Positions 10,867 to 55,491 of a stretch of DNA of 64,000 bases are shown one piece after another. Made by a program: the position numbers and the translations under genes. The stretch is from Salinivirgaceae bacterium (GTDB lineage: Bacteria; Bacteroidota; Bacteroidia; Bacteroidales; SZUA-534), in NCBI GenBank assembly GCA_024405635.1, contig JAKSOL010000010.1, forward strand, positions 2,128 to 66,127, given 5' to 3'. Under the pieces are notes generated by a model that made no database searches, was not told where the DNA came from, and worked only from the letters and a program-made list of their open reading frames with translations. Position 1 is the first letter of the stretch. Every line of letters begins with the position of its first letter.

Positions 10867-10886
10867 TCGCATCAAATATTAGCCCT

Positions 10887-37508: not shown

Positions 37509-37660
37509 CGCTATTATGTTTTGATTAATCCACAAAACTATGGTGCGGCAAACAACCAAGCTTGTAAAAAACGGCCAATGTTTGTTTTAACAAATGAGAT
37601 TATGACTCGCGTTTTGATTAAAAAAGGCTCAATTATTAAAGTAATTGCAAAAAACAACAA

Positions 37661-37700
37661 AGGGACTTACAAAATTTGCAAGTCCCTTTGTTTATTTAAC
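37661..37700 (-). terminator. Rho-independent terminator closing the 47.4-37.7 kb minus-strand operon
   Basis: The stem agggactt...aagtccct is followed on the minus strand by a T-rich tract. It lies 11 nt downstream of the 37711 stop. Confidence 0.7.
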
Positions 37701-37710
37701 TATAAATCAC

Positions 37711-37995
37711 TCACTTATACTCAATTTGGGTTACCAAATCGGAAAGAGGGCAACCTTCATATTCAATTTGCAGGCCTTGTATCGATTTGGGCATAATAAG
37801 CGGTTTTACCAAATGCCATTGTGGACAGCCAAAATCGTACGATTGTCCACTGAGAATCAAACGGTTGCTAACATAATCGAACTCATAAAATCCACCGCCC
37901 AAACAATGTTCAGTGCCAACCAAGAGGTCTTTGTGCAAAAAAACATTGCCAAAACGAAAGTAGTTGTGCGTGGTGATGATAAACTTTTGAGCCAT
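37711..37995 (-). CDS. Hypothetical small protein (94 aa from the ATG)
   Basis: An intact ORF lying 9 nt downstream of the thioredoxin-like gene. It contains 3 Cys (HCLGGG, FGCPQW, EGCPL). No family was recognised. Confidence 0.55.
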   Translation of the reverse strand: MAQKFIITTHNYFRFGNVFLHKDLLVGTEHCLGGGFYEFDYVSNRLILSGQSYDFGCPQWHLVKPLIMPKSIQGLQIEYEGCPLSDLVTQIEYK

Positions 37996-38004
37996 TGACA
38001 ATTA

Positions 38005-39069
38005 CTATTTATCCAACATTTGCTCAATGGTTTGGCTAAAATCAGAAATGCTTAAGCCACAATCAATTATAACATTATTCTCGTCGAGCAAAAAGCAAGT
38101 TGGGATGCTACTTATAGCGTATTTGGCAAACGCATCGTTTCCGCTGAAATCACAAACGTTTATCCAAGGTAAATTGTCTTGTTTAACAGCATCGGCCCAA
38201 CGGGCAAATTCCTTGTCGCCCGAAATGCCAATAACCTCAAGGCCTTTTGAATGTAATTCGTTATAAATCTGAATGTTTGCTGGATTAGCTGCACGACATG
38301 GACCGCACCACGATGCCCAAAAATCAAGAACTTTAACCTTAGCTTTTACCGCCGACAATGCAATAGAATCGCCATTAATTGTTGGCAAAACAAAGTCGGG
38401 TGCAATGTGACCTGGCAAAACAGCTTCAAGGTCGGCAATGCTTTTTTCAAGTAACTTGGCCATATAGAATTTTGAACCTTTTTTGCTAATAAGAGAATTG
38501 AAATGTTTAAGTTCGTCAATTGACATATCGGCTTGCAAAGCAGTGCAAATTAACACTATAGCAACTGGCGAATCGGCATTATCATTACACCAATTAAGCA
38601 TATAATTTAGTCGCACTTCGCCTTGGTCAATAATTTCGTTTATGTAACGTTGAATTAGTTGATTGTTGTTTTCAGACTCGCAAGCTTGGCGATATAAGAC
38701 AAAAAGACTGTCGATTTTTGAAATATTGTAGCTATACACATCGTTGTAAATAGTCTGATTTTTAGGACCTTCAACAAGGTGATCCTCGTTTTCATCAATG
38801 AAAGCCTTGTACTGTCCGCTCTCAAGAATAAAGTTAGTTCCGGCATCTTGTACCAAAATTGATGCGAAAGTAATAGAGTCGATGCTACCAGTAAATTCAA
38901 ATTGATTGTTGACAATTGGTGCTGAAGCAACAATGTTAGAATTGGCTAGCAGATAAGCCGAATCGGCAACAATGTTAGTTGTACCTTTAATGGTGAAGGT
39001 TGAGTTTTGCGAACATGACGATGCAAAAAACGCAACCATCAAAAAAAGAAGTAATTTTTTCATATTCAA
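38005..39069 (-). CDS. TlpA/AhpC-like thioredoxin-fold lipoprotein (thiol-disulfide oxidoreductase)
   Basis: There is a lipoprotein signal (LFLMVAFFASSCSQ) and a C-terminal thioredoxin domain with FWASWCGPC. Confidence 0.85.
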   Translation of the reverse strand: MNMKKLLLFLMVAFFASSCSQNSTFTIKGTTNIVADSAYLLANSNIVASAPIVNNQFEFTGSIDSITFASILVQDAGTNFILESGQYKAFIDENEDHLVEGPKNQTIYNDVYSYNISKIDSLFVLYRQACESENNNQLIQRYINEIIDQGEVRLNYMLNWCNDNADSPVAIVLICTALQADMSIDELKHFNSLISKKGSKFYMAKLLEKSIADLEAVLPGHIAPDFVLPTINGDSIALSAVKAKVKVLDFWASWCGPCRAANPANIQIYNELHSKGLEVIGISGDKEFARWADAVKQDNLPWINVCDFSGNDAFAKYAISSIPTCFLLDENNVIIDCGLSISDFSQTIEQMLDK

Positions 39070-39082
39070 TTATTTATAAAAT

Positions 39083-39844
39083 TTATCTAGCTTTTTGACT
39101 TAATGGATATTTGGCTATAATAATAGCGTGAGCCCAAAGCGTGCGCAACAAACCAAAATGCGAGCGCATACTATTAAAACGCTCAATCCACGAAGCTTTT
39201 CGGTTTGCGTTTGAAACGCCAGCTAACATGAATCGCGAAATGTAACCGTTTATAAAAACATTCTGGCGCGACACCTCAAGCACTTTACAAGTCCAATCGT
39301 AATCGGCTGAAACTCTATATTTTAAGTTATAATCAGGAGCAATAGTTTTGCGAACAAGAATAGATTGATGGCAAACCACAAGTCCATTTAACAGATGCTT
39401 TTTTTGCAAGTTGGCTGGTGCAATTTTGTGGCGCTCGCCCACTGGATTGTCGTTGTGGTCGATAACAAGTGTTTGGCCGTAAACAACATCGCATTGTGGG
39501 TTTGCTTGCACAGCATCGGCAATGTGTTGTGCTGTTTGGTTGTCAAAAATCTTGTCGCCAGCATTCACAAACCACACAAAATCGCCAGTTGCAAGATGCA
39601 AACCTTTGTTCATTGCATCGTACAAACCGCTGTCGGGCTCGCTAATCCAACGTAGGCTGATGGGTGAATTGGAGTTTTTAAGTTCACTCTCAAACTCTTT
39701 AATCTGCTCAACTGTACGGTCGGTCGATTTACCGTCAACAATAATATACTCAATGTTGCTATAAGTTTGACTAGCAACACTTTGCATTGTTTTTGGCAAA
39801 AACTGTTCGGCGTTGAATGTTATTGTTACAACCGATATTTTCAT
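39083..39844 (-). CDS. Glycosyltransferase family 2 (short, soluble, WcaE-like)
   Basis: Motifs seen: ISVVTITFNAEQFL, IIVDGKSTDRT and NAGD (DXD-like). It is 253 aa with no evident TM segment. Confidence 0.8.
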   Translation of the reverse strand: MKISVVTITFNAEQFLPKTMQSVASQTYSNIEYIIVDGKSTDRTVEQIKEFESELKNSNSPISLRWISEPDSGLYDAMNKGLHLATGDFVWFVNAGDKIFDNQTAQHIADAVQANPQCDVVYGQTLVIDHNDNPVGERHKIAPANLQKKHLLNGLVVCHQSILVRKTIAPDYNLKYRVSADYDWTCKVLEVSRQNVFINGYISRFMLAGVSNANRKASWIERFNSMRSHFGLLRTLWAHAIIIAKYPLSQKAR

Positions 39845-39873
39845 TTTTCTGCAAAAAGAGTTATAACCTATTG

Positions 39874-42321
39874 TTAATCAGCCTCTACTGTTTCTTCTTT
39901 GCGTTTTTTTAAAACTAAAGCAATAACAAGGCCAAGAGTAACCAATCCAACAATCCACGACGAACAAGTAGAAATTTTGTTGCTCAAAACATACACATCG
40001 TCAATGCACTTAAACTCAATTGTATGCTGGCCAGCAGGAATTGGCAAACCGCGCAAAATGTAGTTTACTCGCACAATTGGAGTTTCTTGACCATCGATGT
40101 ATGCTTTCCAAGTTTTGTAATAAACCTCAGAAAACACAGCCAACTGATCTTTACTATTTTGACTTTGATAAACGAGGTTTCCTGGATTAACATATTCAGT
40201 TAAAACGATGCTTGCGTTATCGCTATCGTGCTGAAGTTCAGCGGCATTTGGAAGTTTATCGGCCCAGCAACGATCGATAAACGCGGTGGTTTGCGGATTA
40301 AATTCGTCAAGAGCCATAATTTCTTGGTCAGGCGAGTCAACCCACACTATTTCGTTAACAAACCAAGCATTACCGAGTGCATCAGGATTTTGATTTACAG
40401 CAGGTTGGCCATCTTGACCGCGAGTAATAACATAACGTGTGTTGAGCATGTTAAGCACATTGATGTTAATACTGCCCGATAGATGGTGATCGATAATGTC
40501 TTGATAGCGTTGCAATTTGGCAGCACTATAACCACCAACCGATTTATGGAATAACGATGTAGTTGCATCGTTAAAGGTGCTTACGGTAAGATTCAGTACG
40601 CGATAATCAGGGTCGGTATCTTTCATAATCAGACGATCGGCAGCAGTTGGCTGAACAACTTTTGCTGTTTTTTTAGGAACAAAATCGGCATCGTTAAGAA
40701 AACGTTTGTCAACCATCCATAAATCGAGCAGAATTAGCGCACCCAAACATGCAACTAACGTGTTGGTTTTCAGTTTATTATTTACTAACATCAGCATTAA
40801 AACAAATGCCAAAGCAATGAACACAAACGAGCGGAAAGAGTCGCTACGTAGCATATTGGCGCGGTCGGCCTCAAGACTCGAAACCAACCAACCTGGGAAG
40901 TTGCTATCGATAGGTGAACTGAAACTGCAGAATGCACCGCCAATTGTAGCAAACAAAAGGCACAAGCCACCGGTTATTCCTGCTGCTATGCACATTGGTT
41001 TTACAAATTGCTTTCGGTTTTCGGTGGCCAAAAATTCTTTAACAGCCAACATTCCAAGAGCTGCCATTGTAACCTCGGCAATAACCAAGGCCATTGATGG
41101 TGTTCGGAACTTATTAAACAAAGGCAAAGTGTTGAACATAAGCTCGTTAAAAGCCATAAAATTGCCTCCCCACGATAGCATAAGCGACAATATGGTAGCC
41201 AACAATAGCCACCACCTATCGGCTGTTTTTACAACTATGAGACCTAACACAAACAAAAAGCAAATGATGGCTCCCATGTAAACTGGTCCCGATGTGAAAC
41301 TTTGTGTTCCCCAATAAGTTGGCGCATTGGCGCAAAATTGCTTTGCTTGGCCCGATTGGCGCAGAGCATTATAACATTCAGATTTGTTACCAATATTATA
41401 ATGTGAGCTACCACCGTAAAAATTAGGAATAAGCATAGTCATAGACTCGGCAACTCCGTAGCTCCATTGAAAGGCATAGTCAATATCAAGGCCGCTTTTT
41501 TTCTTCTGATTTTCAGACTTTTGAGTTTTTAAAACTGCCCCACCTCGCATTGTATCTTTTGAGTAATCGTAGGTTGGCAATAAAGTTCCTGTTGATGGAA
41601 GAACCGCTAATATGGCAACCAAACCAAGCACAGCCGATGATATAAAGAACTGTTTAACAGTTTTTTGGCGAATGGCATACACTAAATATACACCTGCCAA
41701 TATTAACAACATCAAAAGCAAATAGTATGATATTTGTTGATGAGCCCAATATACATTTAACCCAGTAAAGACAAGAGTTACAAGCGCTCCAACTAAATAT
41801 TTTTGCTTATAAGTAAGAATAACGCCAGCAATAACCGGCGCCATTGTTGCCATAACTAATGCTTTATTTACATGCCCCGCCTCAATAATTATAATATTAT
41901 ACGAAGCAAAAGTATAGGCAATTGCCCCCACAATAGATAACCACGGTTTACAACCAAAAGCAAGCATAAGTATATAAAAACCAATGGCATACAAGAAAAT
42001 TAAGCCCAAGTGATAAGTAGGCATCTTAAACCTAATCCAACGAGAAATTGGTCGAAAAATGTTAGTAGTTTGCGGAGCGTATGCCATATTGGCTGGCATA
42101 CCACCAAACATTCCGTTTGTCCAATAAGCAAATTCGCCAGTCTGCTCATGATAGTCGCGCAAATCTTTACTTGACATACGTCCACTTGCGACATCGCTTT
42201 GCGGCAAATCTTTGTTATCGAATGCTGCTGGCGCCATGTACACAACCGACATTAGCACAAACGACACAACCGCAACCAAGTGCGGCAACATTTTCTTTAA
42301 ATTGAGGTTCTTCATAAACAA
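39874..42321 (-). CDS. YfhO-family polytopic membrane protein (GT-C-like glycosyltransferase candidate)
   Basis: An 815-aa protein with many TM helices in the first 480 aa or so, a large soluble domain and a final TM anchor. The N-terminal WTNGMFGGMP-type motif is as I recall for YfhO-family proteins. Confidence 0.6.
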   Translation of the reverse strand: MFMKNLNLKKMLPHLVAVVSFVLMSVVYMAPAAFDNKDLPQSDVASGRMSSKDLRDYHEQTGEFAYWTNGMFGGMPANMAYAPQTTNIFRPISRWIRFKMPTYHLGLIFLYAIGFYILMLAFGCKPWLSIVGAIAYTFASYNIIIIEAGHVNKALVMATMAPVIAGVILTYKQKYLVGALVTLVFTGLNVYWAHQQISYYLLLMLLILAGVYLVYAIRQKTVKQFFISSAVLGLVAILAVLPSTGTLLPTYDYSKDTMRGGAVLKTQKSENQKKKSGLDIDYAFQWSYGVAESMTMLIPNFYGGSSHYNIGNKSECYNALRQSGQAKQFCANAPTYWGTQSFTSGPVYMGAIICFLFVLGLIVVKTADRWWLLLATILSLMLSWGGNFMAFNELMFNTLPLFNKFRTPSMALVIAEVTMAALGMLAVKEFLATENRKQFVKPMCIAAGITGGLCLLFATIGGAFCSFSSPIDSNFPGWLVSSLEADRANMLRSDSFRSFVFIALAFVLMLMLVNNKLKTNTLVACLGALILLDLWMVDKRFLNDADFVPKKTAKVVQPTAADRLIMKDTDPDYRVLNLTVSTFNDATTSLFHKSVGGYSAAKLQRYQDIIDHHLSGSININVLNMLNTRYVITRGQDGQPAVNQNPDALGNAWFVNEIVWVDSPDQEIMALDEFNPQTTAFIDRCWADKLPNAAELQHDSDNASIVLTEYVNPGNLVYQSQNSKDQLAVFSEVYYKTWKAYIDGQETPIVRVNYILRGLPIPAGQHTIEFKCIDDVYVLSNKISTCSSWIVGLVTLGLVIALVLKKRKEETVEAD

Positions 42322-42354
42322 TTCATTTTAGCGCACGAAGATAAAAAAGCAAAT

Positions 42355-43890
42355 TTAGTTATGTTTTTTACCTTTAATTTGATTTATATACTTGATAATG
42401 TACGAGTTAACAACTTCAGAAATCTGCCATTTATAAATTACCCACATTCCCAATCCTCCTAGAACCGAAGTACGAACAATAGAATCGGCAAATAAATTGA
42501 CAAGTTTTATGCTGCTTAAGCTTAAAAAGGTAGGTGCAACAAACAATTGCCACAACTTATTTAAGCCAAATAATGCCAGAATAACAATAGCACATTTAAG
42601 TTGCGGCCAACAAAAAAGCGAAATGTTATCTTTAATCTTGACAACCAAAAGCAACAACGAATATTGAATGCAATATGCTAACAACGAAGCAATTACAGCG
42701 CCTTCCATTCCCCAAATTGGGATAAGAAGAATGTTTAGCACAACGGCTGAAACCGACAGTAACAGAGTAAAAATTAACGAATAATAATAGTATCGCGAAT
42801 AAGAAAGCACGGTGCTACCAATGCTCAAAACCGAATTAAATAGCCTTGTAAATCCCAAAATAAGCACCACATTTTTTGCAGCGGCATATTTTTCACCATC
42901 GTGTAATATGCTGAATATCAAATCGATATTAATCCACATCAGGAATAAAATAAATGCACCAACCAAAAACTGATGCAAAGCCACATTTTTCACCAACGAG
43001 TTACATTCGGTAACATTGTGATTTTTCATGTGATCGGCCACAAGAGGGCGAGCAATTGCGCCAAGCGAACGATAAGGCATTTCAACCATTCCCGCCATGT
43101 AAAATGCTATAGCAAACACTCCTGTAGTTGCCAATCCCATTTTCATACTTATAAAAAATGAGTTTATGTATGGCGTTATGGTTCCACTCAAAGCAGCGGT
43201 TATCAAAAACAAAGAATAAAGCAGGTAATCTTTTCGTAATGAAGGAGTTATGTGTTTAAAATCGGGTTTAAACGAAATCTTTTTAAGCGACAGCAAATAA
43301 ACAATGTTTGCTAATGTAGCAATACCATAAACGGAACTAAACGCAACCACAAATCCATCAAAATCAAGCATTTGCGCAGCATAAAGTGCATAAACGCCTA
43401 ATGTTAACACGCGAATTAGAACCTCTTTAATGAATTTGGGAACTGCCACACGCATCAGCACATTGGCATTGGTCTCAAACACAGCAGAATAGAGTATGAA
43501 AAAGCCAATAGGGAAAACAAAATTGTAACAGCTGACAAACAATGCCGACTTATCGGAAAACAGACTTGTAATGGGTTCGCGAAGGAACCAAAACAGCATT
43601 CCGTACAAAGCAAAGCCAAACAAGGGAACCAAAACCGTCCAAAAGAAAAAACCATGGTCGTTATGGTCGGCATCTTTAAAATATGGATAAAAGCGCATAG
43701 CCGATGAGTTGGTGCCCAGTTGCGCCAATCCACTCAATAATGTTGCAGCATCAACCAAAACTCGGGTTAGTCCAATCTCTTCGGAAGTGAGAACGCGTGT
43801 AAGAACAAAAAAAGTTGTTACCGCACCTATTGCTGCACCTAAATAGGTGGCAAGTGTTCCTTTAATACTCTGATTAACAATCACTCCCAT
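42355..43890 (-). CDS. Wzx-like polysaccharide/oligosaccharide flippase (MOP superfamily)
   Basis: A 511-aa protein with about 14 hydrophobic segments and an N-terminus typical of polysaccharide biosynthesis (PST) proteins. Confidence 0.75.
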   Translation of the reverse strand: MGVIVNQSIKGTLATYLGAAIGAVTTFFVLTRVLTSEEIGLTRVLVDAATLLSGLAQLGTNSSAMRFYPYFKDADHNDHGFFFWTVLVPLFGFALYGMLFWFLREPITSLFSDKSALFVSCYNFVFPIGFFILYSAVFETNANVLMRVAVPKFIKEVLIRVLTLGVYALYAAQMLDFDGFVVAFSSVYGIATLANIVYLLSLKKISFKPDFKHITPSLRKDYLLYSLFLITAALSGTITPYINSFFISMKMGLATTGVFAIAFYMAGMVEMPYRSLGAIARPLVADHMKNHNVTECNSLVKNVALHQFLVGAFILFLMWINIDLIFSILHDGEKYAAAKNVVLILGFTRLFNSVLSIGSTVLSYSRYYYYSLIFTLLLSVSAVVLNILLIPIWGMEGAVIASLLAYCIQYSLLLLVVKIKDNISLFCWPQLKCAIVILALFGLNKLWQLFVAPTFLSLSSIKLVNLFADSIVRTSVLGGLGMWVIYKWQISEVVNSYIIKYINQIKGKKHN

Positions 43891-43901
43891 TGGCTATGGT
43901 G

Positions 43902-45209
43902 TTAATTTTTTATCTCGTTTAATATTATATCAATAATTTTTTGCGAAGGCATTACCCCATCAGTTGGGCATAAATACTCTTCAAAAAACTGCACACGCTG
44001 AGTTTTCATAGCATCGTTACCGGCAATAACAACATCGGCAACATAGCGTTCAACATCGGCTGGTGAATGTGCATGATAGTGCAAAGCAAAGCACTTTTCG
44101 CCAAAAGAGTTCAGGTGGTCGGTTGTGTGCTCGTCTTTAACTATAAACATGGTTGGTTTTTGTGTATAAAGGTACTCGGCAGTAAACGACGCGCAATCGT
44201 GAATCATTGCATCTGAGGTTGCAAACAAATCGATGTATGCGCCATCTTCAAGCTGGCCGTTGGGCAAATTGCGCCAACGTTGGTAGTATTCTTCAGTTTT
44301 TTCTTCGCCCCAAATGTTTATCAATTTAAACTTTAACACTGGATGAGGCTTAAATGCTATCTGAATTTCGTCTTGATACTTTTCGGCCAGTTGCAACATT
44401 AACTCGCAGTAGGTAAAAAAGTTTGAAAAGTTAAACAGATAATCAACAGTGTGATGCGGTGCCCAAATGATGCGTTTTTTAGGTTTTGACTGCGGTTTCC
44501 AAACATTGCGAGGTTGGTAGTTGGGGCTAATAATTGGCTCCATTCCTAAACATCCTGACACAACTACATTTTCGTCAGACCGAATGCCATATTTGTTGTA
44601 GTATTCCTTTTGATAAGGAGTTTCAACAAACGATTTCCAAAGCATTGAATGGAAAATAGACCCATAGTTATTTTTGTAATTATCGATGCACACAAATCCG
44701 TAAGGAACATAGCACGACAATTTGTTGGCAAAAGAGTAAACATGATACTTTGGCAGAGTATCTTTATATGGTTTAGTAAAGAAAACAATGTCGGGATTCA
44801 CCTCTTTTTTCACGTCAATCCACTTGTGATTTGACGCACAATAAGCCGATATGTATTTATAATTGCTTGATTTAACAAACTCTTCAGTTTGAGCCATTAC
44901 GTTAATGTACTCTTGCTTAGAATAATATAGGTGTACATTGAACGGAACAATAACCACAATGGGGTCAAAAATGTTGTAACGCTCAAATAATCGGTACAGA
45001 TAGTCATATTTCCAAGTGGTTGGAGTTTGTATAAAAAAGGCTACTTTAATTTTATCTTTTTTAGCCAATTGTTTAACAAGTTTTTGCTGGCTATGCACTA
45101 TTTTTTTTAAACGTTTGGCTAGCAATTTGGGGAATAGAGAGATGAAAAGGTCTCCAAAAGAAACCGATTTGTACAATACATCTACTTTTTGCAACAAGTT
45201 GGAAAACAT
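43902..45209 (-). CDS. CDP-glycerol glycerophosphotransferase family protein (TagB/TagF-like)
   Basis: The C-terminal half has KKRIIWAPHHT, FKPHP and SDAMIHDCASFTAEYLYTQKP. These match the TagF-type pattern (..APT.R.., .HP, sD.litDySS...f....kP). Confidence 0.6.
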   Translation of the reverse strand: MFSNLLQKVDVLYKSVSFGDLFISLFPKLLAKRLKKIVHSQQKLVKQLAKKDKIKVAFFIQTPTTWKYDYLYRLFERYNIFDPIVVIVPFNVHLYYSKQEYINVMAQTEEFVKSSNYKYISAYCASNHKWIDVKKEVNPDIVFFTKPYKDTLPKYHVYSFANKLSCYVPYGFVCIDNYKNNYGSIFHSMLWKSFVETPYQKEYYNKYGIRSDENVVVSGCLGMEPIISPNYQPRNVWKPQSKPKKRIIWAPHHTVDYLFNFSNFFTYCELMLQLAEKYQDEIQIAFKPHPVLKFKLINIWGEEKTEEYYQRWRNLPNGQLEDGAYIDLFATSDAMIHDCASFTAEYLYTQKPTMFIVKDEHTTDHLNSFGEKCFALHYHAHSPADVERYVADVVIAGNDAMKTQRVQFFEEYLCPTDGVMPSQKIIDIILNEIKN

Positions 45210-45210
45210 A

Positions 45211-46554
45211 TTATATAAGTGTAGTTTTTTGTCCTTTTATATAAATGTCAATTACAGATGATATTGCAGTAGATTCTTTGATGGACAATTTGTATGATTC
45301 TTTTTTAGGAGAATTAATTAGATGCAAGAACTCTTCAATTTCGTATCTAAGTCCATCGCCATCAAATTTGTAGAAGTATTTTTTAGTATTATTCAAATCC
45401 TCGTAACGCAATTCAAAATATTCGGTTTTCCACCATGGTGCAGGTACATAGGCGTAACCTTTGGTACCCGAAATAATAAGGCAGCCCTCTGTTTTAACGC
45501 CTAAACCAACTTTAAACGAAGCTGTTGACTGTTTAAACTGGAACAATCCTTTTGTAAAGATATCAACACCATTTTCGTAGCTAGAGAAAAAACGCACATC
45601 ACAAAAATCGTTTCCAAACAATTTAACTATTGGCAACAACACATAAGAGGCAAGTTCGGTAACACTACCACCTGCCATTTGAGGATTCAGTTCGCGTAAG
45701 TTTCCGGTTGTTAGTTTGGTAAACGATGCCTCAACATCTTTTATAGTTCCTATGCATCCGCTTTTTACTAATGAAATTAAATGAGTAAATCCGGGCGAAT
45801 AGGCGGTTTTTATTGCCTCAAGCAGAACTAGGTTCTTAGAGTTTGCAAGTTCATACAAACTTTCGGTTTCAGTTTTTGACAAGGTAATTGGTTTTTCACA
45901 AAGAACATGTTTACCCTTGTTTAATGCTTGTCTAATGTAATCGGCATGAGTTTTATGAGGTGAGGCTATGTATATAGCATCAACATTTTCGGCAAATGAA
46001 TCAAAATTTGATGATGCTATTTTTAGTTCGTGTTTGGCACAAAAGGCATCGGCCGATGCTTGATTGGGGTTATATACACCAACAACATCAACGCCGCTCA
46101 CATATTTTGATTCTAAAACAAAGCGATTTGCAATTCGGCCACTTCCAATTATACCTATTTCAACTATTCGTTGCGACAAATCGCGTATTTGAGTGCTTGA
46201 TATTCCCTTTGTGCGCTCCAAATAAACAACATCGCAATATTCTTTTAGGTAATCAAATTTACCAACCCAATCTGAACCTATAGCAAAAATGTCTATTCCA
46301 TATTTTTGTATATCGTCAATTTTTTGTCCTTCGTATTCTTCAATAATAATTTCGTCGGCCAAACCTGTTGCTCTTACGTCATTTATTCGATCAATGCAAC
46401 TTTTCTGAACATTTAATTTACCACGACCTTTATCATAGTTTTCGGTAGTAACGCCTACAATTAAATAATCGCCAAGGGCTTTTGCTCTTTTAAGCAAATT
46501 GATATGCCCATAATGTAGCATATCAAATGTTCCGTATGTTATTACTTTCTTCAT
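45211..46554 (-). CDS. Fusion protein: TagD-type glycerol-3-phosphate cytidylyltransferase domain plus Gfo/Idh/MocA-family NAD(P) oxidoreductase domain
   Basis: The N-terminus (nt 46171-46554) reads MKKVITYGTFDMLHYGHINLLKRAKALGDYLIVGV...GSDWVGKFDYLKEYCDVVYLERTKGISST, with an HxGH signature. The C-terminus has the Rossmann motif IGIIGSGRIANRF and HVLCEKP, typical of Gfo/Idh/MocA. Confidence 0.8.
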   Translation of the reverse strand: MKKVITYGTFDMLHYGHINLLKRAKALGDYLIVGVTTENYDKGRGKLNVQKSCIDRINDVRATGLADEIIIEEYEGQKIDDIQKYGIDIFAIGSDWVGKFDYLKEYCDVVYLERTKGISSTQIRDLSQRIVEIGIIGSGRIANRFVLESKYVSGVDVVGVYNPNQASADAFCAKHELKIASSNFDSFAENVDAIYIASPHKTHADYIRQALNKGKHVLCEKPITLSKTETESLYELANSKNLVLLEAIKTAYSPGFTHLISLVKSGCIGTIKDVEASFTKLTTGNLRELNPQMAGGSVTELASYVLLPIVKLFGNDFCDVRFFSSYENGVDIFTKGLFQFKQSTASFKVGLGVKTEGCLIISGTKGYAYVPAPWWKTEYFELRYEDLNNTKKYFYKFDGDGLRYEIEEFLHLINSPKKESYKLSIKESTAISSVIDIYIKGQKTTLI

Positions 46555-46624
46555 ATATGCATGAACTTCAAATAATTCATTTAAGTTGCACGTTTTCGTT
46601 TTATGCCTCTTCTAAAATAGTTTG

Positions 46625-47425
46625 TTAATCATTGAATTTTATTTCCAAGCTATGTATTTGTCGCTTTTCAATTGGCGGCACTTGCATATAATCTCCATAA
46701 ATGTTTGATAAATATGCATCAAAATTGCCTGGACACAAGAATTTATGTCCTTCAAATTCAATTTCGGTTAATGGAAATATTGTATTAGAGTTTACTCGTT
46801 TATTTCGCATTAGAGTAAAAAAGTCAATTGCATAGCTATAAATCAAGTTTTTAATTTGAAAAACCGAGAAAAAAGTACGCAATGTAAACTCAATCAGCAA
46901 GCAAGGCAAATACAATATGCAAGCAACTATGTATTCTGATTTAGAACTTGAAAAATGATTTACCCGTCGGAAAGTACGGCCATAGATTAAATCAAATGCT
47001 GTTTTAATTTTTACCGATCCTGTTTCCATTGGAAAGATATCGACAAACAGGCCGTTGTGCGCTTTGGCAAATTCGGTTTTATGAATGCTCACTATCTCCG
47101 ATTTGGTATCAACAACTCTTCCGTATGCTAAAAAGTAGTTTTTGTCGGTTTTATGGTTTTGCAAAACGTATTTTTCAGGTAGTTCTAATTCTAATGCTTT
47201 GTATAACCGTTTTTGGTCTTTTCTGAGTATTGTAATATCCACGTCATCGTCCCATGGAATAAAACCTTTATGGCGAACAGCGCCAAGTAGAGTGCCAAAA
47301 TCAAGCCAATATGGAATATTGTTTTTTCGGCACACTTTATCTATTTCCACCAAAATGTCGAGGAGTCGTAATTGTGCTTTACGTAATGTTGTTCCTTCGG
47401 CATTATAATGTGACAAATCTTCCAT
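46625..47425 (-). CDS. LicD-family phosphotransferase
   Basis: Motif seen: YWLDFGTLLGAVRHKGFIPWDDDVDI. The ATG at 47425 (MEDLSHYN) is preferred over 47461. Confidence 0.85.
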   Translation of the reverse strand: MEDLSHYNAEGTTLRKAQLRLLDILVEIDKVCRKNNIPYWLDFGTLLGAVRHKGFIPWDDDVDITILRKDQKRLYKALELELPEKYVLQNHKTDKNYFLAYGRVVDTKSEIVSIHKTEFAKAHNGLFVDIFPMETGSVKIKTAFDLIYGRTFRRVNHFSSSKSEYIVACILYLPCLLIEFTLRTFFSVFQIKNLIYSYAIDFFTLMRNKRVNSNTIFPLTEIEFEGHKFLCPGNFDAYLSNIYGDYMQVPPIEKRQIHSLEIKFND

Positions 47426-47528
47426 TTTTAACTTGTTATTTGCTTTGCAAAGTAAGCACAAGCCCGCAATATCACGTTATAAATAGGCCATTGTTTTTAT
47501 TGATAAATTGCTTTTTGCTATAAACAAC

Positions 47529-47567
47529 AAACTCCGCCCCAAAGTTGAAGGCCTTTGAGCGGAGTTT
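47529..47567 (-). terminator. Hairpin terminator downstream of the aminotransferase gene
   Basis: The arms aaactccgc and gcggagttt pair, with an inner caaag/ctttg extension. A T-rich tract follows on the minus strand. Confidence 0.6.
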
Positions 47568-47592
47568 GCTATGTAAAGCTATTGTTGAGCTA

Positions 47593-48882
47593 TTATTTTG
47601 CAACCTCTTTGCAAGCTGCGTATATTCCCTCAAACAATGGTTTAATATCTTTTTCAGCAACTGCTGAGAATGCAATGCGCAACAATCCGTTAAGGTTGAT
47701 TGTTCCAATGCTATATTTTTCAATTAGCAACATACGAACAGCTTCTGCATCAATGTTTTCGTTTAGTTTGATGCACATAAAATAGCCTGAGTTGTATGGT
47801 AGTGGAGCAAAACACTCTTTGTATTTTTCGTCTTTAAGAGTCTCTTTTACTGCATTGTAACGTTGTTGCATTGTTTGCAATTTAGCTTTCTTTTCGTCGG
47901 CATAGGTAGGCGACTCAAAGGCTTGCAACAACAACGATTGCGACAAGTTGCTTGCATTTGAAATGTTGCCACGAACGGCGCCTGCTGTTTTGTTTTCAAG
48001 TGCTGCATATAGGTCGGCATCGCCACCTTTTACTCCGTATGTGATAAAGCCTACACGGAAACCCCAAACGTAATCTTCTTTGGTTGGGCCGTCAACTTTT
48101 ACAGCAAGTACATTTTCGTGCAAGTCGCACAAGTATGCAAATGGCGATTGAAGGTCAACGCCTTGTTCGTAAACTAAGCCAAAGTATGCATCGTCGCAAA
48201 CTACCGCTATTTTTTTGCCACTCTCGGCTGCTTTTTTAATGGTTGCAACCAATTGTTTCATTTCTTCAACAGTTGGAGAGTAACCTGTTGGGTTGTTTGG
48301 GAAGTTAAGCAATAGTACTTTTTTGTCGCCTTCGGCCATAAGTGCAGCCTCAACAGCGGCAATGTCCATTGCGTTGTTTTTAAACAAGTTGTATGTTACA
48401 ACTTTTGCACCGTAACCGTTAGTTAATGCCAAATTGTAGTTGCCCCAATAAAGGTTTGGTACAAGAATTTCTTGCCCTTCGTCTAACAACATATAGCCAA
48501 CCATGCTAATACCATGAGTTAGTGCGCTTGTTGCAACTGGTAAACTGTAAACTTTGCCTTTCAACGATGGATTTTTCTCAGCAATCATTGTTTGCCAACG
48601 TTTACGAATGTCAGGGCGACCAAAACTTGGAGCGTATAGGAATGCTAGTTTTGAGTCGATGCCCAATTTTGAACTGATGCTCTCAAGGTGCATTGGAGTG
48701 CCATCGTCTTCAATTGCAGTACCAATTGTTGCATTGATTTTTGTTCCTTTGGCATCGGCCGATTGGCCTAGAATACCTTTTTTAGGGAAGAAAATGTTTT
48801 TGCCACGTTGTGACAACAATTCAAAAACTGCATTGTTTTTTTGCTGAATTGTGTTGTTTAATTCTTGCGCTTGGGGATTCAT
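47593..48882 (-). CDS. Class I/II PLP-dependent aminotransferase (429 aa)
   Basis: It has aminotransferase-fold motifs (NFPNNPTGYSP, DDAYFGLVYE, a Lys in GPTKEDYVWGFRVGF). The substrate cannot be assigned. Confidence 0.8.
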   Translation of the reverse strand: MNPQAQELNNTIQQKNNAVFELLSQRGKNIFFPKKGILGQSADAKGTKINATIGTAIEDDGTPMHLESISSKLGIDSKLAFLYAPSFGRPDIRKRWQTMIAEKNPSLKGKVYSLPVATSALTHGISMVGYMLLDEGQEILVPNLYWGNYNLALTNGYGAKVVTYNLFKNNAMDIAAVEAALMAEGDKKVLLLNFPNNPTGYSPTVEEMKQLVATIKKAAESGKKIAVVCDDAYFGLVYEQGVDLQSPFAYLCDLHENVLAVKVDGPTKEDYVWGFRVGFITYGVKGGDADLYAALENKTAGAVRGNISNASNLSQSLLLQAFESPTYADEKKAKLQTMQQRYNAVKETLKDEKYKECFAPLPYNSGYFMCIKLNENIDAEAVRMLLIEKYSIGTINLNGLLRIAFSAVAEKDIKPLFEGIYAACKEVAK

Positions 48883-50757: not shown

Positions 50758-53700
50758 TTATTTTTTCTTCTTTTTTCCTTTATCCTCTTGTGGCACAGCA
50801 TCAACAGGAGCATCGGCTGGAGCTTCAATTTTCATCAAGCTATCGGTGCGTATGCTGTCTAATCTAATGCTATCGAGTTGCAGTTGATCGAGTTCGTCAA
50901 AAGCCGAAACGCTGTCGCTTGCCTGTAGCACGTTACCGTCTTCGTCAACAAACACTTCGTCATCAATGTCGCCATCGCCTTCTGGGGCTTCAATATTAAG
51001 GTCGATGCGCTTCAAGAAATCGTCTTTCTTCTTTTTGTTCGATAAGAAGAATGAATAAGCCATTTGTCCACGAATTGCAGGCAACCTACGTGCATTACCT
51101 TTTATTGATGTGATTACTGAATTGAATTTTTGGTCGCAGCTGTATGCCTGCATCAAACCTCTTTTGTATGAGAAGAAGTACCACAAATCGGGGTTAAGTT
51201 CCATGTAAATGTTGAGAGCATCGGCACTTCGTTTGCGGTCAATTTCAATAACAAACTTAACGCGACGGTTAATTTGGTATCCACCAAGGTTAACCAATCC
51301 AATTTCGCCAACCGATTGCCACGAGCGTGTTTTCTTGTTCCAAACCATACGCATTTCCGACAATACCATGGCTTTGTTCATTTCCTCTGGTATTTGGTTC
51401 AGTTTACCAAATATGTTTTGCTCGGTAAACATTTTCTGTGCACGTCCTGAACCCATCAATTCGCGCACGCCTTTAGTATAAACCGAGCTGATAAGACTAA
51501 TGTTCTTGCGGTTTTTATCGGCAAGAATTGTATCGGCAATAACCTTAAAGCACTCTTGTGGCAGATAGAAATCAAGTGTCATAAGAATGTCCATTGAGTA
51601 TTGGTCAAAGGCAATGTCGTAGGTTGTTTTACCTTTTGCCACAGCCTTAACACGTCCAAGATTTGCGACAAGATCGATGCTACCGTCGGTTGTAATGGTG
51701 CAAGCTTTTTTGTTTAGTCGCATGTAGTTGCCCAAACTATCGTTGTAGGTTATGCGCTCGCGGCTACCTATTTCATAAAAATCGCCATAACGGTTGTAGT
51801 GTAGATAACCTTGTGTGTGGGTAATGTGGCGGTTGCTGTACCAACGACGAGGCGACAAGAATGCTGGGTAAAGGTAAACCGAGTCCATACCCATCATGGC
51901 TCCCGAAGTTAGGAATGCGTTATTGATGCTCATTGGTTGGCTATCGATTGGCACAAACACATCTTTTGGGTCAATTTCAGCATGAAAGTTTACCCAAGTT
52001 TTTGGAATGTCGCAGTTATGAACAATGGCTGTTGCTCCGGTGTAATCAAGCAACGGATTTTGCGACTTCATATTAACTTTTCCTTGATACTTAAAGGCTG
52101 GCGAAAGTGTAAAGTCGTCGATACTTTTAATTCTACCCTCGCCTATGGTTTGTCCAGCAGTGTCAACCTTAATTGGATCAAACGCAATGTACTCTACTTC
52201 GCCATTGTTTTGAGTATATGTATAGTCGCCATTTCCGTAATATTTATGGCGAGTTTCAATATCAACATTTGCATTTACCAAATGGTGGTAGTTATGAAGT
52301 GTATCGGCATCAATTTTAGCTTTTTTCAATTTGCGAATTTTTGCCATTGGTTCAATGGTCATTTCGCCTTGATCAGGATAAATGCGAGCATCGGCAATAG
52401 GCACATAGTTTACCTTGTGAGCCGACATAATGTTGTCGGTTAGGCTGAAGTCCAACAGAGGCGAAACCCAATAGAGCGAATCTTGCCCTTTGTGTGTTGA
52501 CACAAACAAGCTACCAGTGTTGCGGTCGATATTGGATGAGCTACGTGTGCGGTCAACTTCTTTTGAGCTGGCAAACTGCATCTGTTTTTTTCGCATCATC
52601 CAACTAAAATTCTCAACCCAAGCTAAATAAAGGTTTTCAGGAAAATCGACTCGTTCGGTTCCACTATTGCTTTTAAAGGTTGCTTTACCTGATGCAAAAT
52701 CGACATGGGCTTTTAAATTTTTAGTACTAACGGCCAGATTTTCAGGCCTATACGACTTAATTTGCAAACTTGCAGTATCGCAGCTATAATCGGTGTGGCG
52801 CATTTTGAACAAATTTGAGGTTATAGCTCCATCAAATTGTGTTGCAGTTCCTTTGGCTGTGATGCTGTTTGTGCCATAAAACACGTGACCTTTGAGTTCG
52901 CACTCGCCTTTAAACAGAGCAAGAGGAGCACCAAGGCTCTTAATGTCAAGCACATCGTTATATGGTTCCCAATGAATGTAGGCTTGTGTAGCTGCCACGT
53001 TGGTATGAATGCCAGGTTTGTTATCAATTGTCATTGATGTTGTTATGGCATTGGCCGAGTCGGGGAAGAACAAAAAGTCGTCGGATTTAATATCGGCAAG
53101 TTGATATTTAACCTCACCATTTCCACGCAAACCTTTGTTACTCATGTAAATATCGTTGTAGTATGTGCCCTTGCCTTTGTAGGCGGAATAGCCTTGAGGC
53201 GCATGCTCAACAAAACCAAACGAGAAGTCGTCTTGCACCGACAATCGTTGTTTGAAAACTGGGAAGATGTCGGCAGAATGTAGTTCGCCATCGTAGCCCA
53301 ATGCTTCGGTTGAGAAGTGGTTCAAACTGTCGATGGTGTAAGGATAAACTTGGAAATAGAAGTTGTCGCGAATGTATTTTCCGTCGGCAATATGCGGTGC
53401 GTCGTAGTAAACGTACGAGTCTTTTTCTGATGCAAAAATTGGGTATTGCAAGTATCGCTTAACGCCCGATTTGTTACCGGGGTCGTCAATTTTCAGTTTT
53501 CCGGTAATGTTCTCAATGGAGTTTTGCACGTTGGCAAGCATACGCTCACCTTTAGCGTTAGTTCCCGTTTTAACTTTTACTTTAAGAGAGTCAACGTGAC
53601 TAAGCTCAACCATAAAATCGTCGTAGTTGAAGTGGAAATCGGTACCATAGAAAGTGAACAAACCTGCCTCAATTCGACCACCGAAGTCAAAGTTCATGTC

Positions 53701-55491
53701 GCGTTTCACAAGGATTTGACCTTTGCTGGGATAAAAAATAACGTTTTGGCTATCGGACACGTTAACCATAGGAACACCACGAATGGCCAAGTCCATATTC
53801 AAAAGATTTAGTTCGGCATTGTTTATGCCTGAGCCTGTTTCCGATTCAAGTTTAATCAAGTCGTAGTCGCGTTTTCCAACCACACAATCGAGATATCGGT
53901 ACAATTTTGGAAGAACAACAACCCAATCGGTTTCGGTATTCAGTTCTACTATCTTATTATAAGCCAACTGAATAAGCAAACGTTTGGTGGTTGTCATGCC
54001 CATTTTTATATATTTAGCAAAGTCTTCAACATAAAACTCTTTGCTTCCAAAACGCTGAACAAACGACCTCAACATTAAATATGGGTGAGTTTCTTCCAAT
54101 CCTTGAGCCTCGTAATAACGTTGAGCACTGAAATAGTTTTGCGACTCAAAGTTTGCGTAGTTGATGGTACTACCAATGGTATTACCCATAAAAATTTTGT
54201 CATCGTCCATTTGCCAAGTAAGCAACGAAAAGTCGAGCTCCATTTTGTGGTACGAGTCAACATACGGACTTCGCGACATGTTTTCGGGGCTATTATCGCG
54301 CAACAATTCAATGGTTCGAGTATCGTTGTTGTACTTAAACTCCAAACCTGGGTGAAAAATTGAATCGTCTTCAATGTATATTGATGTTTTGGCGTTGAGC
54401 GAACGGGCACGATCTGATTTAAAGCTAAAGTGCTTACCTTCAATGTACATCACCTTGCGCTTGCCAGTTACTGTTTCACCCTTTTCGTTTGCATAAAGGT
54501 ACTCGCGATAGAATGTCAGTTTTGCAGGATTATCAGCGGTTCCAGCACCCGAAACCTTTGAACCACTAGCTATAAAACCGCCTTGAAAATCAATATCGGT
54601 ATATAGGTTTTTAATTTTCAGTTGTTGGTCGTCCGATTGAAATTTAGGATAGTTGCCTTTATATGAGTTTTCAACCACTTTATCGGTTATTGTACCAATA
54701 ATGGCGTCTGAGAAATATGGCAAGTTGTAGTAGTACACGTTTTTCATGGTGTACGACTGGTGGGCAAGGTTAATTGTGTATTGGTCAACCTCGGCCCAAG
54801 TTGAGTCGCGCGACAAACCTACGCGTTCCCAAAACACCATACCCGAGTTGCCATACCACATGTTTGATATTGGGTTAAAGTAGCCCGATGTGTTATAAAT
54901 TGTCAAACTATCGTTGCGTACTTTGCAATGAAGGTCAAGGTTGTCGTAGTAGTAACATGTTGTGTCGCCCAACGACATAATTTGGAAACTACTGTTGCTA
55001 CCATACCAACGCATTCCGTATGACGAATAAATGGCGTTTTCTTTCAACATTCGCACAATACTGCTATTGTACTTGTCCATATCGCTCAATTTTGACTTTT
55101 TATTGTTGAGCATGCGAATCAAGCCATCTTGCCACGAATCGTAACTATATTCTGATATTTCGACAGTGTTTACAGCCTCAAGAGCAAGCAAATAGTTGTA
55201 TATATTTGGATATGCGCGGCCTTTGCGAGTCAAGTATTGGTTGCAAATTTCGTAAACCTTTTGGCGTCGTTCGGGAGTAAAAATTTCGTCGTTGTACCAA
55301 ATTGGGTTCAACATAGCCACAATTTCCTTGCCCTTTGGTGCGCTTACATCGTTTTGCGAGAACAAATCTTGAAGGTCTTTGATAAACGCTTTTGGTTCGG
55401 GAGTGAGCGTACGTACTGGTTTTTGTGCCAACGCAACCATTGGCAACAAAAGTAAGGTTATGATAAATAGTTTTAGTTTATTCATTTTCAA
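50758..55491 (-). CDS. Very large secreted protein of unknown function (1577 aa)
   Basis: A single uninterrupted ORF with a signal peptide (MKMNKLKLFIITLLLLPMVALAQ). The body is aromatic-rich and beta-like. The C-terminal tail is acidic, then poly-Lys (..LDSIRLDSIRTDSL..DKGKKKKK). Its start abuts the prmA stop. Confidence 0.7.
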   Translation of the reverse strand: MKMNKLKLFIITLLLLPMVALAQKPVRTLTPEPKAFIKDLQDLFSQNDVSAPKGKEIVAMLNPIWYNDEIFTPERRQKVYEICNQYLTRKGRAYPNIYNYLLALEAVNTVEISEYSYDSWQDGLIRMLNNKKSKLSDMDKYNSSIVRMLKENAIYSSYGMRWYGSNSSFQIMSLGDTTCYYYDNLDLHCKVRNDSLTIYNTSGYFNPISNMWYGNSGMVFWERVGLSRDSTWAEVDQYTINLAHQSYTMKNVYYYNLPYFSDAIIGTITDKVVENSYKGNYPKFQSDDQQLKIKNLYTDIDFQGGFIASGSKVSGAGTADNPAKLTFYREYLYANEKGETVTGKRKVMYIEGKHFSFKSDRARSLNAKTSIYIEDDSIFHPGLEFKYNNDTRTIELLRDNSPENMSRSPYVDSYHKMELDFSLLTWQMDDDKIFMGNTIGSTINYANFESQNYFSAQRYYEAQGLEETHPYLMLRSFVQRFGSKEFYVEDFAKYIKMGMTTTKRLLIQLAYNKIVELNTETDWVVVLPKLYRYLDCVVGKRDYDLIKLESETGSGINNAELNLLNMDLAIRGVPMVNVSDSQNVIFYPSKGQILVKRDMNFDFGGRIEAGLFTFYGTDFHFNYDDFMVELSHVDSLKVKVKTGTNAKGERMLANVQNSIENITGKLKIDDPGNKSGVKRYLQYPIFASEKDSYVYYDAPHIADGKYIRDNFYFQVYPYTIDSLNHFSTEALGYDGELHSADIFPVFKQRLSVQDDFSFGFVEHAPQGYSAYKGKGTYYNDIYMSNKGLRGNGEVKYQLADIKSDDFLFFPDSANAITTSMTIDNKPGIHTNVAATQAYIHWEPYNDVLDIKSLGAPLALFKGECELKGHVFYGTNSITAKGTATQFDGAITSNLFKMRHTDYSCDTASLQIKSYRPENLAVSTKNLKAHVDFASGKATFKSNSGTERVDFPENLYLAWVENFSWMMRKKQMQFASSKEVDRTRSSSNIDRNTGSLFVSTHKGQDSLYWVSPLLDFSLTDNIMSAHKVNYVPIADARIYPDQGEMTIEPMAKIRKLKKAKIDADTLHNYHHLVNANVDIETRHKYYGNGDYTYTQNNGEVEYIAFDPIKVDTAGQTIGEGRIKSIDDFTLSPAFKYQGKVNMKSQNPLLDYTGATAIVHNCDIPKTWVNFHAEIDPKDVFVPIDSQPMSINNAFLTSGAMMGMDSVYLYPAFLSPRRWYSNRHITHTQGYLHYNRYGDFYEIGSRERITYNDSLGNYMRLNKKACTITTDGSIDLVANLGRVKAVAKGKTTYDIAFDQYSMDILMTLDFYLPQECFKVIADTILADKNRKNISLISSVYTKGVRELMGSGRAQKMFTEQNIFGKLNQIPEEMNKAMVLSEMRMVWNKKTRSWQSVGEIGLVNLGGYQINRRVKFVIEIDRKRSADALNIYMELNPDLWYFFSYKRGLMQAYSCDQKFNSVITSIKGNARRLPAIRGQMAYSFFLSNKKKKDDFLKRIDLNIEAPEGDGDIDDEVFVDEDGNVLQASDSVSAFDELDQLQLDSIRLDSIRTDSLMKIEAPADAPVDAVPQEDKGKKKKK

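Follow-up and report, generated by a model that had tools for sequence, protein, structure and literature searches.

A replaceable cassette of predicted polyol-phosphate genes precedes a conserved Wzx-YfhO-GT2 frame in a Bacteroidales genome

We analyzed a 64-kb stretch of DNA (the window, to which all positions refer) from a metagenome-assembled genome (MAG) labelled Salinivirgaceae bacterium, order Bacteroidales, a label that agrees with the diderm Bacteroidota premise of the original prediction for this sequence. Between positions 47425 and 37711, the minus strand carries eight open reading frames (ORFs) that encode, in order, a LicD-family phosphotransferase, a TagD-type cytidylyltransferase fused to an oxidoreductase, a TagF-like transferase, a Wzx flippase, the membrane protein YfhO, a short GT2 glycosyltransferase, a TlpA-like lipoprotein, and a 94-aa protein (p94). 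The original prediction had spoken of a "nine-gene operon" with teichoic-acid-type chemistry, although it listed eight products and seven gaps itself; the count is eight. Re-derivation of the ORFs reproduced the strand, coordinates, and gaps that had been given, with an inter-ORF spacing of 70, 1, 11, 33, 29, 13, and 9 nt, and likely start codons are ATG at 47425 for LicD (266 aa) and ATG at 37995 for p94. As had also been proposed, two strong hairpins bracket the genes. The upstream one (47529-47567, minus strand; CAAACTCCGC...GCGGAGTTTG) is the terminator of an aminotransferase gene and marks the upstream edge of both the operon and its variable cassette; RNA folding of 47525-47572 gave -26.4 kcal/mol. 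The downstream one (37656-37692, minus strand) is an intrinsic terminator with a 17-bp stem, a 3-nt loop, and a T-run at the operon end, and folding of 37650-37700 gave -25.1 kcal/mol. A sigma-70 promoter scan returned 38 sites, which is shuffle level (38.4 expected), and three copies of the Bacteroidota -7 motif TAnnTTTG were seen in 10 kb, roughly the number expected by chance, none of them in the LicD leader.

Pfam calls were judged by each family's own gathering cut-off, and NCBIfam models were scanned as well. In this profile search all of the earlier family assignments stood, each above its Pfam cut-off, with p94 as the protein without a family. Neither these models nor those of NCBIfam detected Wzy, an initiating phosphoglycosyltransferase, or UpxY/UpxZ among the eight products, as had been stated before. 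The hallmarks of a Bacteroides-type capsule locus (UpxY/UpxZ, a Bac_transf/WecA-type initiator, Wzy, Wza/Wzc) are missing from the operon, and the evidence agrees with the view that the locus is a system for decoration with polyol phosphate and not a standard capsule locus.

Comparison with the corresponding locus of a sister lineage (L168; L-numbers denote loci of other genomes) revealed that the operon is a mosaic and not one evolutionary unit. In blastn, the two loci share 85-89% DNA identity on either side of positions 44506-47522 and none in between. This segment, delimited by the recombination boundaries against the sister lineage, is a replaceable cassette that comprises the LicD gene, the fusion gene, and the 5' half of the TagF-like gene; its GC content of 0.344 is the lowest in the window, which averages 0.397 (0.393 in the operon outside the cassette). 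The proteins encoded outside the cassette are closely matched in L168 (aminotransferase 98%, Wzx 93%, YfhO 92%, GT2 89%, TlpA 77%, and p94 90% identical). Between the aminotransferase terminator and Wzx, L168 encodes a stand-alone TagD, an AsnB-like protein, LicD (56%), IspD, an epimerase-type short-chain dehydrogenase/reductase (SDR), and a TagF-like protein (66%). The fusion is missing from L168, with the stand-alone TagD, IspD, and SDR in its stead. The breakpoint at 44506 falls within the TagF-like gene and, between the window and L168, the TagF-like proteins are 33-60% identical over the first 240 aa and 78-95% over the last 195 aa. The block does not move as a unit, as the original prediction had thought conceivable, since the full eight-gene set is found in same-species loci only and L168 swaps the cassette. 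The cassette has been exchanged between close relatives and is probably a horizontally acquired, replaceable element that was inserted directly upstream of a conserved Wzx-YfhO-GT2 frame.

The first cassette gene (46625-47425) encodes the LicD-family cytidine diphosphate (CDP)-alcohol phosphotransferase. It matches PF04991 with E=3e-41 (142 bits, cut-off 22.6), its sequence holds a DDDVD motif, i.e., the acidic DxD of the family, and it matches FKRP, a ribitol-phosphate transferase that uses CDP-ribitol, at E=5e-6. The second gene (45211-46554), which also lies inside the cassette, encodes the TagD-type cytidylyltransferase (residues 1-125) fused to a Gfo/Idh/MocA oxidoreductase (residues 130-447), with Pfam scores of 72 bits for CTP_transf_like and 88 bits for GFO_IDH_MocA. 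Its N-terminal domain scores 125 bits against Bacillus subtilis TagD and Staphylococcus aureus TarD and retains the nucleotide-binding motifs HxGH (HYGH) and RTxGISST (RTKGISST). The domain has Lys at position 46 but Arg at position 44, where B. subtilis TagD has the phosphate-binding pair Lys44 and Lys46. The score against TIGR01518 is 115.5, under the equivalog cut-off of 165.4. By homology, we predict the fusion to be a CDP-glycerol synthase or a synthase of a CDP-glycerol-like compound. Literature searches did not find a published characterization of a TagD::Gfo/Idh/MocA fusion.

At such loci, the combined reductase and cytidylyltransferase function has non-orthologous solutions. In L085, an SDR is fused N-terminally to a TagD-like domain (389 aa; L085:3803-4972), and the stand-alone TagD, IspD, and epimerase-type SDR of L168 (L168:3081-7083) are possibly a CDP-ribitol-type route.

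The third gene (43902-45209) is itself a mosaic, with its 5' half in the variable cassette and its 3' half in the conserved frame, and its product is probably a distant GT-B transferase of the TagF/TarL superfamily. The match to Glyphos_transf (PF04464; 26.2 bits, cut-off 22.1) covers residues 244-430 in the C-terminal half only. A profile of the family, which has 2,791 representatives at E up to 0.001, matches the ribitol-phosphate polymerase TarL (8VA1) with E=3.6e-7 over the FKPHP and SDxxIxDxxS motifs. The AlphaFold2 (AF2) model (predicted local distance difference test score, pLDDT, 91.6) has a GT-B fold; TarL, Bcs3, and TagF rank 8, 21, and 47 in a fold search that is headed by UDP-GlcNAc 2-epimerases and cannot tell the protein from generic GT-B folds. 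TagF family members have two conserved catalytic histidines, H444 and H584 (Schertzer et al., 2005, as cited in PMC11666461). The histidine of the HP motif, H289 (FKPHP), is invariant in the TagF-like family, and an invariant Tyr170 (VPY) and a variable His187 are present in the neighborhood expected for the first TagF histidine. The protein matches the NCBIfam model BFO_1060 weakly, at 23.6 bits and far under the cut-off of 200. That family includes the TagB-like pseudaminic/legionaminic acid (Pse/Leg) GT-B transferases of the Tannerella forsythia protein O-glycan, whose C-terminal half is conserved and whose N-terminal half varies between strains (PMC5420450). The TagF-like proteins of the window and L168, from the same phylum, show the same mosaic of a variable N-terminal and a conserved C-terminal half.

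In a scan of one genome per species, the fusion enzyme was encoded at 396 loci. Its sequence identity is 55-70% across Bacteroidales, Paenibacillus, Cohnella, Neobacillus, Clostridia, Erysipelotrichaceae, Cetobacterium (Fusobacteria), Akkermansia, and Cloacimonadota, and this identity across phyla marks it as what appears to be a laterally exchanged precursor enzyme. The fusion is usually accompanied by LicD and/or TagF-like genes: LicD homologs (27-39% identity) directly adjoin it in about 27 of 80 loci, and in 14 plus 10 loci the next gene downstream is TagF-like. Its closest homologs (69-70%) sit with TagF-like and LicD genes in loci that have Wzy/EpsG, Bac_transf, GT4 glycosyltransferases, or NeuB. 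The full trio of fusion, TagF-like, and LicD genes is present in the Wzy-type loci L169-L171, with Wzy/EpsG and Bac_transf in L170 and L171. Because the fusion and the phosphotransferases sit in ordinary polysaccharide loci, teichoic-type chemistry is genomically common in Bacteroidales surface-glycan loci. The earlier notion that such chemistry is out of place in a diderm was therefore overstated, given the trio in ordinary Wzx/Wzy loci of Bacteroidales and the precedents in Porphyromonas gingivalis and Actinobacillus (PMC8729774, PMC11666461).

The fusion gene has other neighbors elsewhere. In Paludibacter/Bacteroidales loci (L004, L006, L011, L014, L015, L021), relatives that are 65-68% identical, encoded at about 10001-11330, are followed by a CDP-alcohol phosphatidyltransferase gene (PF01066) and, in five of these six loci, next by an LPG_synthase_TM flippase-like protein (PF03706). 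This suggests that the same CDP-polyol may also feed a membrane-lipid head group, e.g., of a phosphoglycerol lipid or ceramide. Flagellin, FliD, and FliS genes are found a few kb from the fusion and LicD genes in Cohnella/Paenibacillus loci, L075 and L083 among them; these loci look like flagellin glycosylation islands with the same CDP-polyol module.

To characterize the rest of the operon, we compared it with 83 other YfhO loci. The fourth gene (42355-43890) encodes a flippase of the Wzx/MOP family (PF01943 Polysacc_synt, 35.1 bits, cut-off 28.2). A Wzx ortholog (56-57%) lies 3.6 kb from YfhO in L099, beside kdtA-gltX, and two clusters of MOP-flippase-like proteins have genes in the vicinity of YfhO, one in 9 and the other in 7 of the 83 loci. 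The fifth gene (39874-42321) is the conserved core gene and encodes the YfhO-like GT-C membrane glycosyltransferase (813-815 aa). It matches PF09586 at 29.2 bits (cut-off 28.5) over its last 60 residues only. Across Bacteroidales, however, YfhO orthologs are 57-60% identical over their full length, and D43 in the first loop after transmembrane helix 1 is invariant in 20 orthologs. An AF2 model (pLDDT 77) contains a C-terminal beta-rich domain at residues 628-772, and its top 12 Foldseek matches in the PDB are all GT-C proteins (AftD, PglB, STT3, AftA), with probabilities of 0.99-1.00 and TM scores of 0.25-0.43. According to this model, YfhO is a predicted GT-C enzyme. The gene sahH lies within 10 kb of the YfhO ortholog in L084 and L099, as is the case for the phylum-wide yfhO, which in Bacteroides and its relatives is found near sahH or mtnN-luxS (bioRxiv 10.64898/2026.07.27.740950). 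In these comparisons, which cover the Bacteroidales loci of our scan, YfhO of the window may be an ortholog of the Bacteroidota core YfhO, a candidate O-oligosaccharyltransferase. Four companions of YfhO at other loci, namely kdtA, gltX, sahH, and a membrane GT2 of about 330 aa, are not encoded within the 64-kb window. A Bacteroidota -7-type motif (TAAATTTG, 42350-42357, minus strand) falls in the 33-nt gap that immediately precedes the YfhO start and could be an internal promoter of an ancestral YfhO-GT2 unit, although the motif frequency of three in 10 kb is close to chance.

The sixth gene (39083-39844) encodes the partner of YfhO, a short soluble GT2 glycosyltransferase of 253 aa (PF00535, 86 bits; best NCBIfam match WcaE). 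In 13 of the 15 Bacteroidales-type loci with enough flank, a GT2 homolog (244-267 aa, 38-61% identity) is encoded no more than about 2.3 kb downstream of YfhO, and in most of these 13 it directly adjoins YfhO. The closest relatives of the operon's GT2 in the PDB are soluble, glycan-acting GT-A enzymes and not dolichol-phosphate mannose synthase (DPMS), GtrB, or polyprenol-phosphate sugar synthases. Taken together, Wzx, YfhO, and GT2 are the conserved part of the operon, with YfhO and the short GT2 as a near-constant pair in Bacteroidales. The two are also kept in Bacteroidales loci without polyol-phosphate genes, and the Firmicutes analogy drawn for YfhO in the original prediction, i.e., glycosylation of teichoic acids, does not carry over. 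A different GT2 of 319-335 aa (PF13641/PF13632) and a UXS-like epimerase recur near YfhO in L084, L085, L086, L099, L172, and L174, where an epimerase/GDP-mannose-dehydratase-family gene pair is often nearby. The L099 copy of this GT2, the one that was read, has a hydrophobic C-terminal tail, and the membrane GT2 could be a lipid-sugar synthase partner of the GT-C enzyme.

The last two genes encode a DUF4369 and TlpA/ResA-like thioredoxin-fold lipoprotein with a WCGPC motif (38005-39069; AhpC-TSA/Redoxin and DUF4369 pass their cut-offs) and p94 (37711-37995), which has no Pfam or NCBIfam match. TlpA never adjoins YfhO in the 83 other loci, which gives it no comparative tie to the glycan genes, and p94 is present at none of them. 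We therefore rejected TlpA and p94 as functional partners, for which the 83 loci provide no support outside this lineage; they are probably lineage-specific passengers. Start-codon annotation is inconsistent in this species. Gene callers give 234 aa for GT2, where the ORF and L168 favor 253 aa, and 345 aa for TlpA (L001/L002), compared to an ORF of 354 aa.

The upstream aminotransferase (47593-48882) was also considered as a module member similar to the pneumococcal protein Gtp3. This was rejected because its gene is set apart from the operon by a strong terminator, it is 98% conserved in L168 while the cassette is swapped, and no such gene accompanies the fusion elsewhere. Farther upstream, between prmA and proB, the window contains a 1,577-aa ORF (50758-55491, minus strand) without a Pfam match at E up to 1e-5; its counterpart in L001 is a 1,575-aa gene. 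At the other end (3491-4927, plus strand), a 478-aa protein with the unusual pairing of an APH-type phosphotransferase and a RapZ C-terminal domain is encoded after a hybrid histidine kinase (887-3148).

In other lineages, polyol-phosphate genes are found at some YfhO loci. In L093 and L095, the gene next to YfhO on its upstream side encodes a TagF-like homolog (53-55%), and L093 has a stand-alone TagD as well. The YfhO locus L085 contains LicD, the SDR::cytidylyltransferase fusion, a TagF-like gene, and IspD, and L141 contains TagF-like and TagD genes. These gene neighborhoods point to an association of polyol-phosphate genes with YfhO that is real but confined to a minority of loci, with independent arrangements.

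Teichoic-acid-like chemistry is established in diderms, in the capsules of Pasteurellaceae, Neisseria, and Campylobacter (PMC5974469, PMC8262930, PMC11666461), and this includes the exact pairing of TagF-like and LicD enzymes. In Actinobacillus capsules, such enzymes build poly(glycerol-3-phosphate) (PMC11666461). Our operon resembles the A. pleuropneumoniae serotype 3/7 locus in that CpsA (PF04464), CpsC (LicD), and Gct represent the same three Pfam families in a diderm, where glycerol phosphate is placed on a lipid-linked glycan (PMC11666461). It differs in that Actinobacillus uses an ABC transporter (KpsMT), a glycolipid of beta-linked 3-deoxy-D-manno-octulosonic acid (Kdo), and the polymerase CpsD, whereas our operon has a Wzx flippase and a GT-C enzyme as partners, carries its cytidylyltransferase as an oxidoreductase fusion, and contains neither a polymerase nor Kps genes. 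With the Firmicutes machinery for wall teichoic acid (WTA) and lipoteichoic acid (LTA), the operon shares the TagD domain (125 bits against TagD/TarD), the motifs of the TagF/TarL catalytic region, and a YfhO-family GT-C enzyme. Unlike that machinery, it lacks TagO, TagA, TagGH, and a LytR-CpsA-Psr (LCP) ligase, none of which was found among the eight operon products and twelve flanking products scanned, and Wzx replaces the ABC exporter. Compared to the Firmicutes set of CsbB/GtlA, GtcA, and YfhO, the GT2 is of a soluble type (253 aa) and the flippase is Wzx/MOP and not GtrA. A further difference from the Firmicutes setting is that YfhO comes here from a Bacteroidota clade whose conservation does not depend on the presence of polyol-phosphate genes.

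By annotation only, the cassette also resembles the pneumococcal wchX-gtp1-gtp2-gtp3 module for CDP-2-glycerol, in which a dehydrogenase, a cytidylyltransferase, and a glycerol-phosphotransferase are encoded next to wzx (PMC1391919, PMC3493582). The pneumococcal genes are, however, separate and include a third enzyme, Gtp3, an equivalent of which does not accompany the fusion. To our knowledge, the pneumococcal module is the only documented case in which a CDP-glycerol isomer requires an oxidoreductase. Among Bacteroidota, the protein O-glycan of P. gingivalis carries phosphoglycerol (P-Gro) on an N-acetylhexosamine (PMC8729774). The O-glycan locus of this phylum, LFG, consists of metG, wzx, variable glycosyltransferases, and two conserved glycosyltransferases at the end (PMC12871550). 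Unlike LFG, which opens with metG-wzx, our operon has the aminotransferase and then a terminator as its upstream neighbor. The oligosaccharyltransferase, core flippase, and ligase of Bacteroidota protein O-glycosylation are still unidentified (PMC12871550), and a 2026 preprint predicted, on indirect grounds, that YfhO is the missing O-oligosaccharyltransferase (bioRxiv 10.64898/2026.07.27.740950). Literature searches turned up no characterized Bacteroidota locus of this kind and no orthologous locus within a characterized capsule or O-antigen cluster, an outcome that leaves the original prediction standing on this point.

With moderate confidence, we favor a pathway in which the polyol-phosphate cassette and the conserved Wzx-YfhO-GT2 frame act together: a CDP-polyol is made, its polyol phosphate is put on a lipid-linked glycan, and the product is flipped and passed by YfhO to a periplasmic acceptor. 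As for substrate, order of steps, and acceptor, we infer the following. Judging by homology, the TagD domain would produce a C3 polyol in CDP-activated form (CDP-glycerol or one of its stereo- or regio-isomers), and the fused NAD(P) oxidoreductase would supply the polyol phosphate or reduce a CDP-keto intermediate. Paradigms for such a step of an oxidoreductase with a cytidylyltransferase are TarJ/TarI, AbpA/AbpB, and pneumococcal Gtp1/Gtp2. In the cytoplasm, the TagF-like and LicD proteins would each take polyol phosphate off the CDP donor and attach it to a hydroxyl of an undecaprenyl-linked oligosaccharide; GT2 may add a sugar to this oligosaccharide. One of the two transferases may prime and the other extend, as do CpsA and CpsC in Actinobacillus. 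Wzx, as expected from its family, would flip the decorated lipid-linked glycan, and YfhO, with its predicted GT-C fold, would hand the glycan to the periplasmic acceptor. The likeliest acceptors are the Ser/Thr residues targeted by the phylum-wide system of protein O-glycosylation and, alternatively, lipooligosaccharide (LOS). In favor of the pathway are the protein families, the cassette exchange, the modularity of the donor module, the links to YfhO in L085, L093, L095, and L141, the predicted GT-C fold of YfhO, the conserved GT2, and the recurring MOP-flippase-like genes. From the literature, the glycerol phosphate on the P. gingivalis O-glycan (PMC8729774) and the prediction of YfhO as the oligosaccharyltransferase (bioRxiv 10.64898/2026.07.27.740950) speak for it as well.

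Several observations weigh against this pathway. About 78 of the 83 YfhO loci are without polyol-phosphate genes. P. gingivalis has a glycerol-phosphate O-glycan yet is without YfhO (bioRxiv 10.64898/2026.07.27.740950), and YfhO is therefore not required for glycerol-phosphate decoration. L093 and L168 make do with a stand-alone TagD, which gives the oxidoreductase domain no obvious role. In the TagF-like protein, the N-terminal half aligns to neither TarL nor PF04464, and no counterpart of the first catalytic TagF histidine was located. The protein is likely a distant family member with a donor assigned by homology; because of this distance, the unaligned N-terminal half, and the unlocated histidine, the donor could be another CMP-linked compound, by analogy with the nonulosonic acid transferases of T. 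forsythia. Among the eight products scanned, the operon encodes no initiating phosphoglycosyltransferase. Co-transcription of the eight genes is deduced from their spacing and the two terminators, and all eight are known from sequence alone, in an uncultured organism represented by a MAG.

A more far-reaching version of the favored pathway, which we put forward tentatively and regard as doubtful, is that Wzx-YfhO-GT2 represents the core, i.e., flippase and O-oligosaccharyltransferase, of general protein O-glycosylation in Bacteroidota, with the glycan being diversified by swapping of polyol-phosphate cassettes at the operon head. If true, the protein O-glycan would vary in a serotype-like manner and carry teichoic-acid-type substituents.

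Alternatively, the pathway might decorate LOS or lipopolysaccharide (LPS) and not proteins, with YfhO and GT2 acting at the lipid A-core and the cassette adding glycerol phosphate to the core. The YfhO locus is beside kdtA, which encodes the Kdo transferase, and gltX in L084, L085, and L099, and L093 contains genes of the Kdo pathway that are, by sequence resemblance, KpsF- and KdsC-like. The kdtA adjacency may, however, be neutral synteny, and kdtA and gltX are missing from our window. TagF-like transfer of glycerol-3-phosphate (Gro3P) onto Kdo is documented for Actinobacillus CpsA and the Kdo-lipid (PMC11666461), and P. gingivalis glycosylates its proteins without YfhO (bioRxiv 10.64898/2026.07.27.740950), whereas the account of the characterized LOS cluster of Bacteroides thetaiotaomicron (BT3362-BT3380) does not mention YfhO. 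We consider exclusive LOS or LPS decoration possible but unlikely.

Still less probable is a self-contained teichoic-acid-like system in which TagF-like and LicD enzymes build a polymer on a lipid anchor, Wzx exports it, and YfhO and GT2 glycosylate it outside the membrane. The gene set equals the Firmicutes toolkit, and in Bacillus YfhO and CsbB glycosylate LTA. A LicD-family enzyme is, in addition, able to polymerize Gro3P (PMC11666461). Against this stands the conservation of YfhO and the short GT2 in Bacteroidales loci without any polyol-phosphate genes, and the general acceptor of YfhO therefore cannot be a polyol-phosphate polymer. GT2 also resembles soluble glycan-acting GT-A enzymes, unlike CsbB, GtrB, and DPMS-type synthases, and neither a GtcA-type flippase nor an ABC exporter or LCP ligase was detected by Pfam among the operon products. 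From these comparisons, a Firmicutes-style role of YfhO in glycosylating a teichoic polymer seems unlikely. Finally, an accidental juxtaposition is similarly improbable. In that case, the cassette would have landed between genes at a site that tolerates insertions, it would belong to a capsule or O-antigen pathway with genes elsewhere, and Wzx-YfhO-GT2, TlpA, and p94 would have roles unrelated to it. The same trio does work within ordinary Wzx/Wzy loci, TlpA and p94 show that unrelated genes ride in the operon, and the GC content of the cassette is deviant. However, the independent lineages L085, L093, L095, and L141 set TagF-like and cytidylyltransferase genes directly against YfhO in varied arrangements. 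The sister lineage, moreover, exchanges its cassette at this very slot, and one of the breakpoints falls within the TagF-like gene, which implies that the site itself is maintained.

The chemistry of the favored pathway is in itself unsurprising. Three features set the locus apart: the chemistry has a Wzx flippase and a GT-C enzyme as partners in place of an ABC transporter, TagD is part of a TagD::Gfo/Idh/MocA fusion, and the cassette that opens the YfhO operon is exchanged between lineages. A single fused enzyme, a predicted CDP-polyol synthase, is common to Bacteroidales polysaccharide loci, flagellar and cell-wall loci of Firmicutes, and putative lipid head-group loci. The cassette exchange may lead to serotype-like variation, in which this lineage would have glycerol-type chemistry and the sister lineage would combine glycerol with an IspD/SDR-derived polyol. 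The genomic context bears on the open question of YfhO function and makes it experimentally approachable: YfhO shares an operon with Wzx, a conserved GT2, and a donor/transferase cassette whose predicted product, glycerol phosphate, is recognizable by its mass (+154 Da) and trackable by 31P nuclear magnetic resonance (31P-NMR). In relatives with a TagF-like gene abutting yfhO, loss of phosphate from the O-glycan, LOS, or capsule would tell which pathway YfhO serves. The identity of the Bacteroidota O-oligosaccharyltransferase and core flippase has been open for more than 15 years (PMC12871550), and this locus adds independent genomic context to it.

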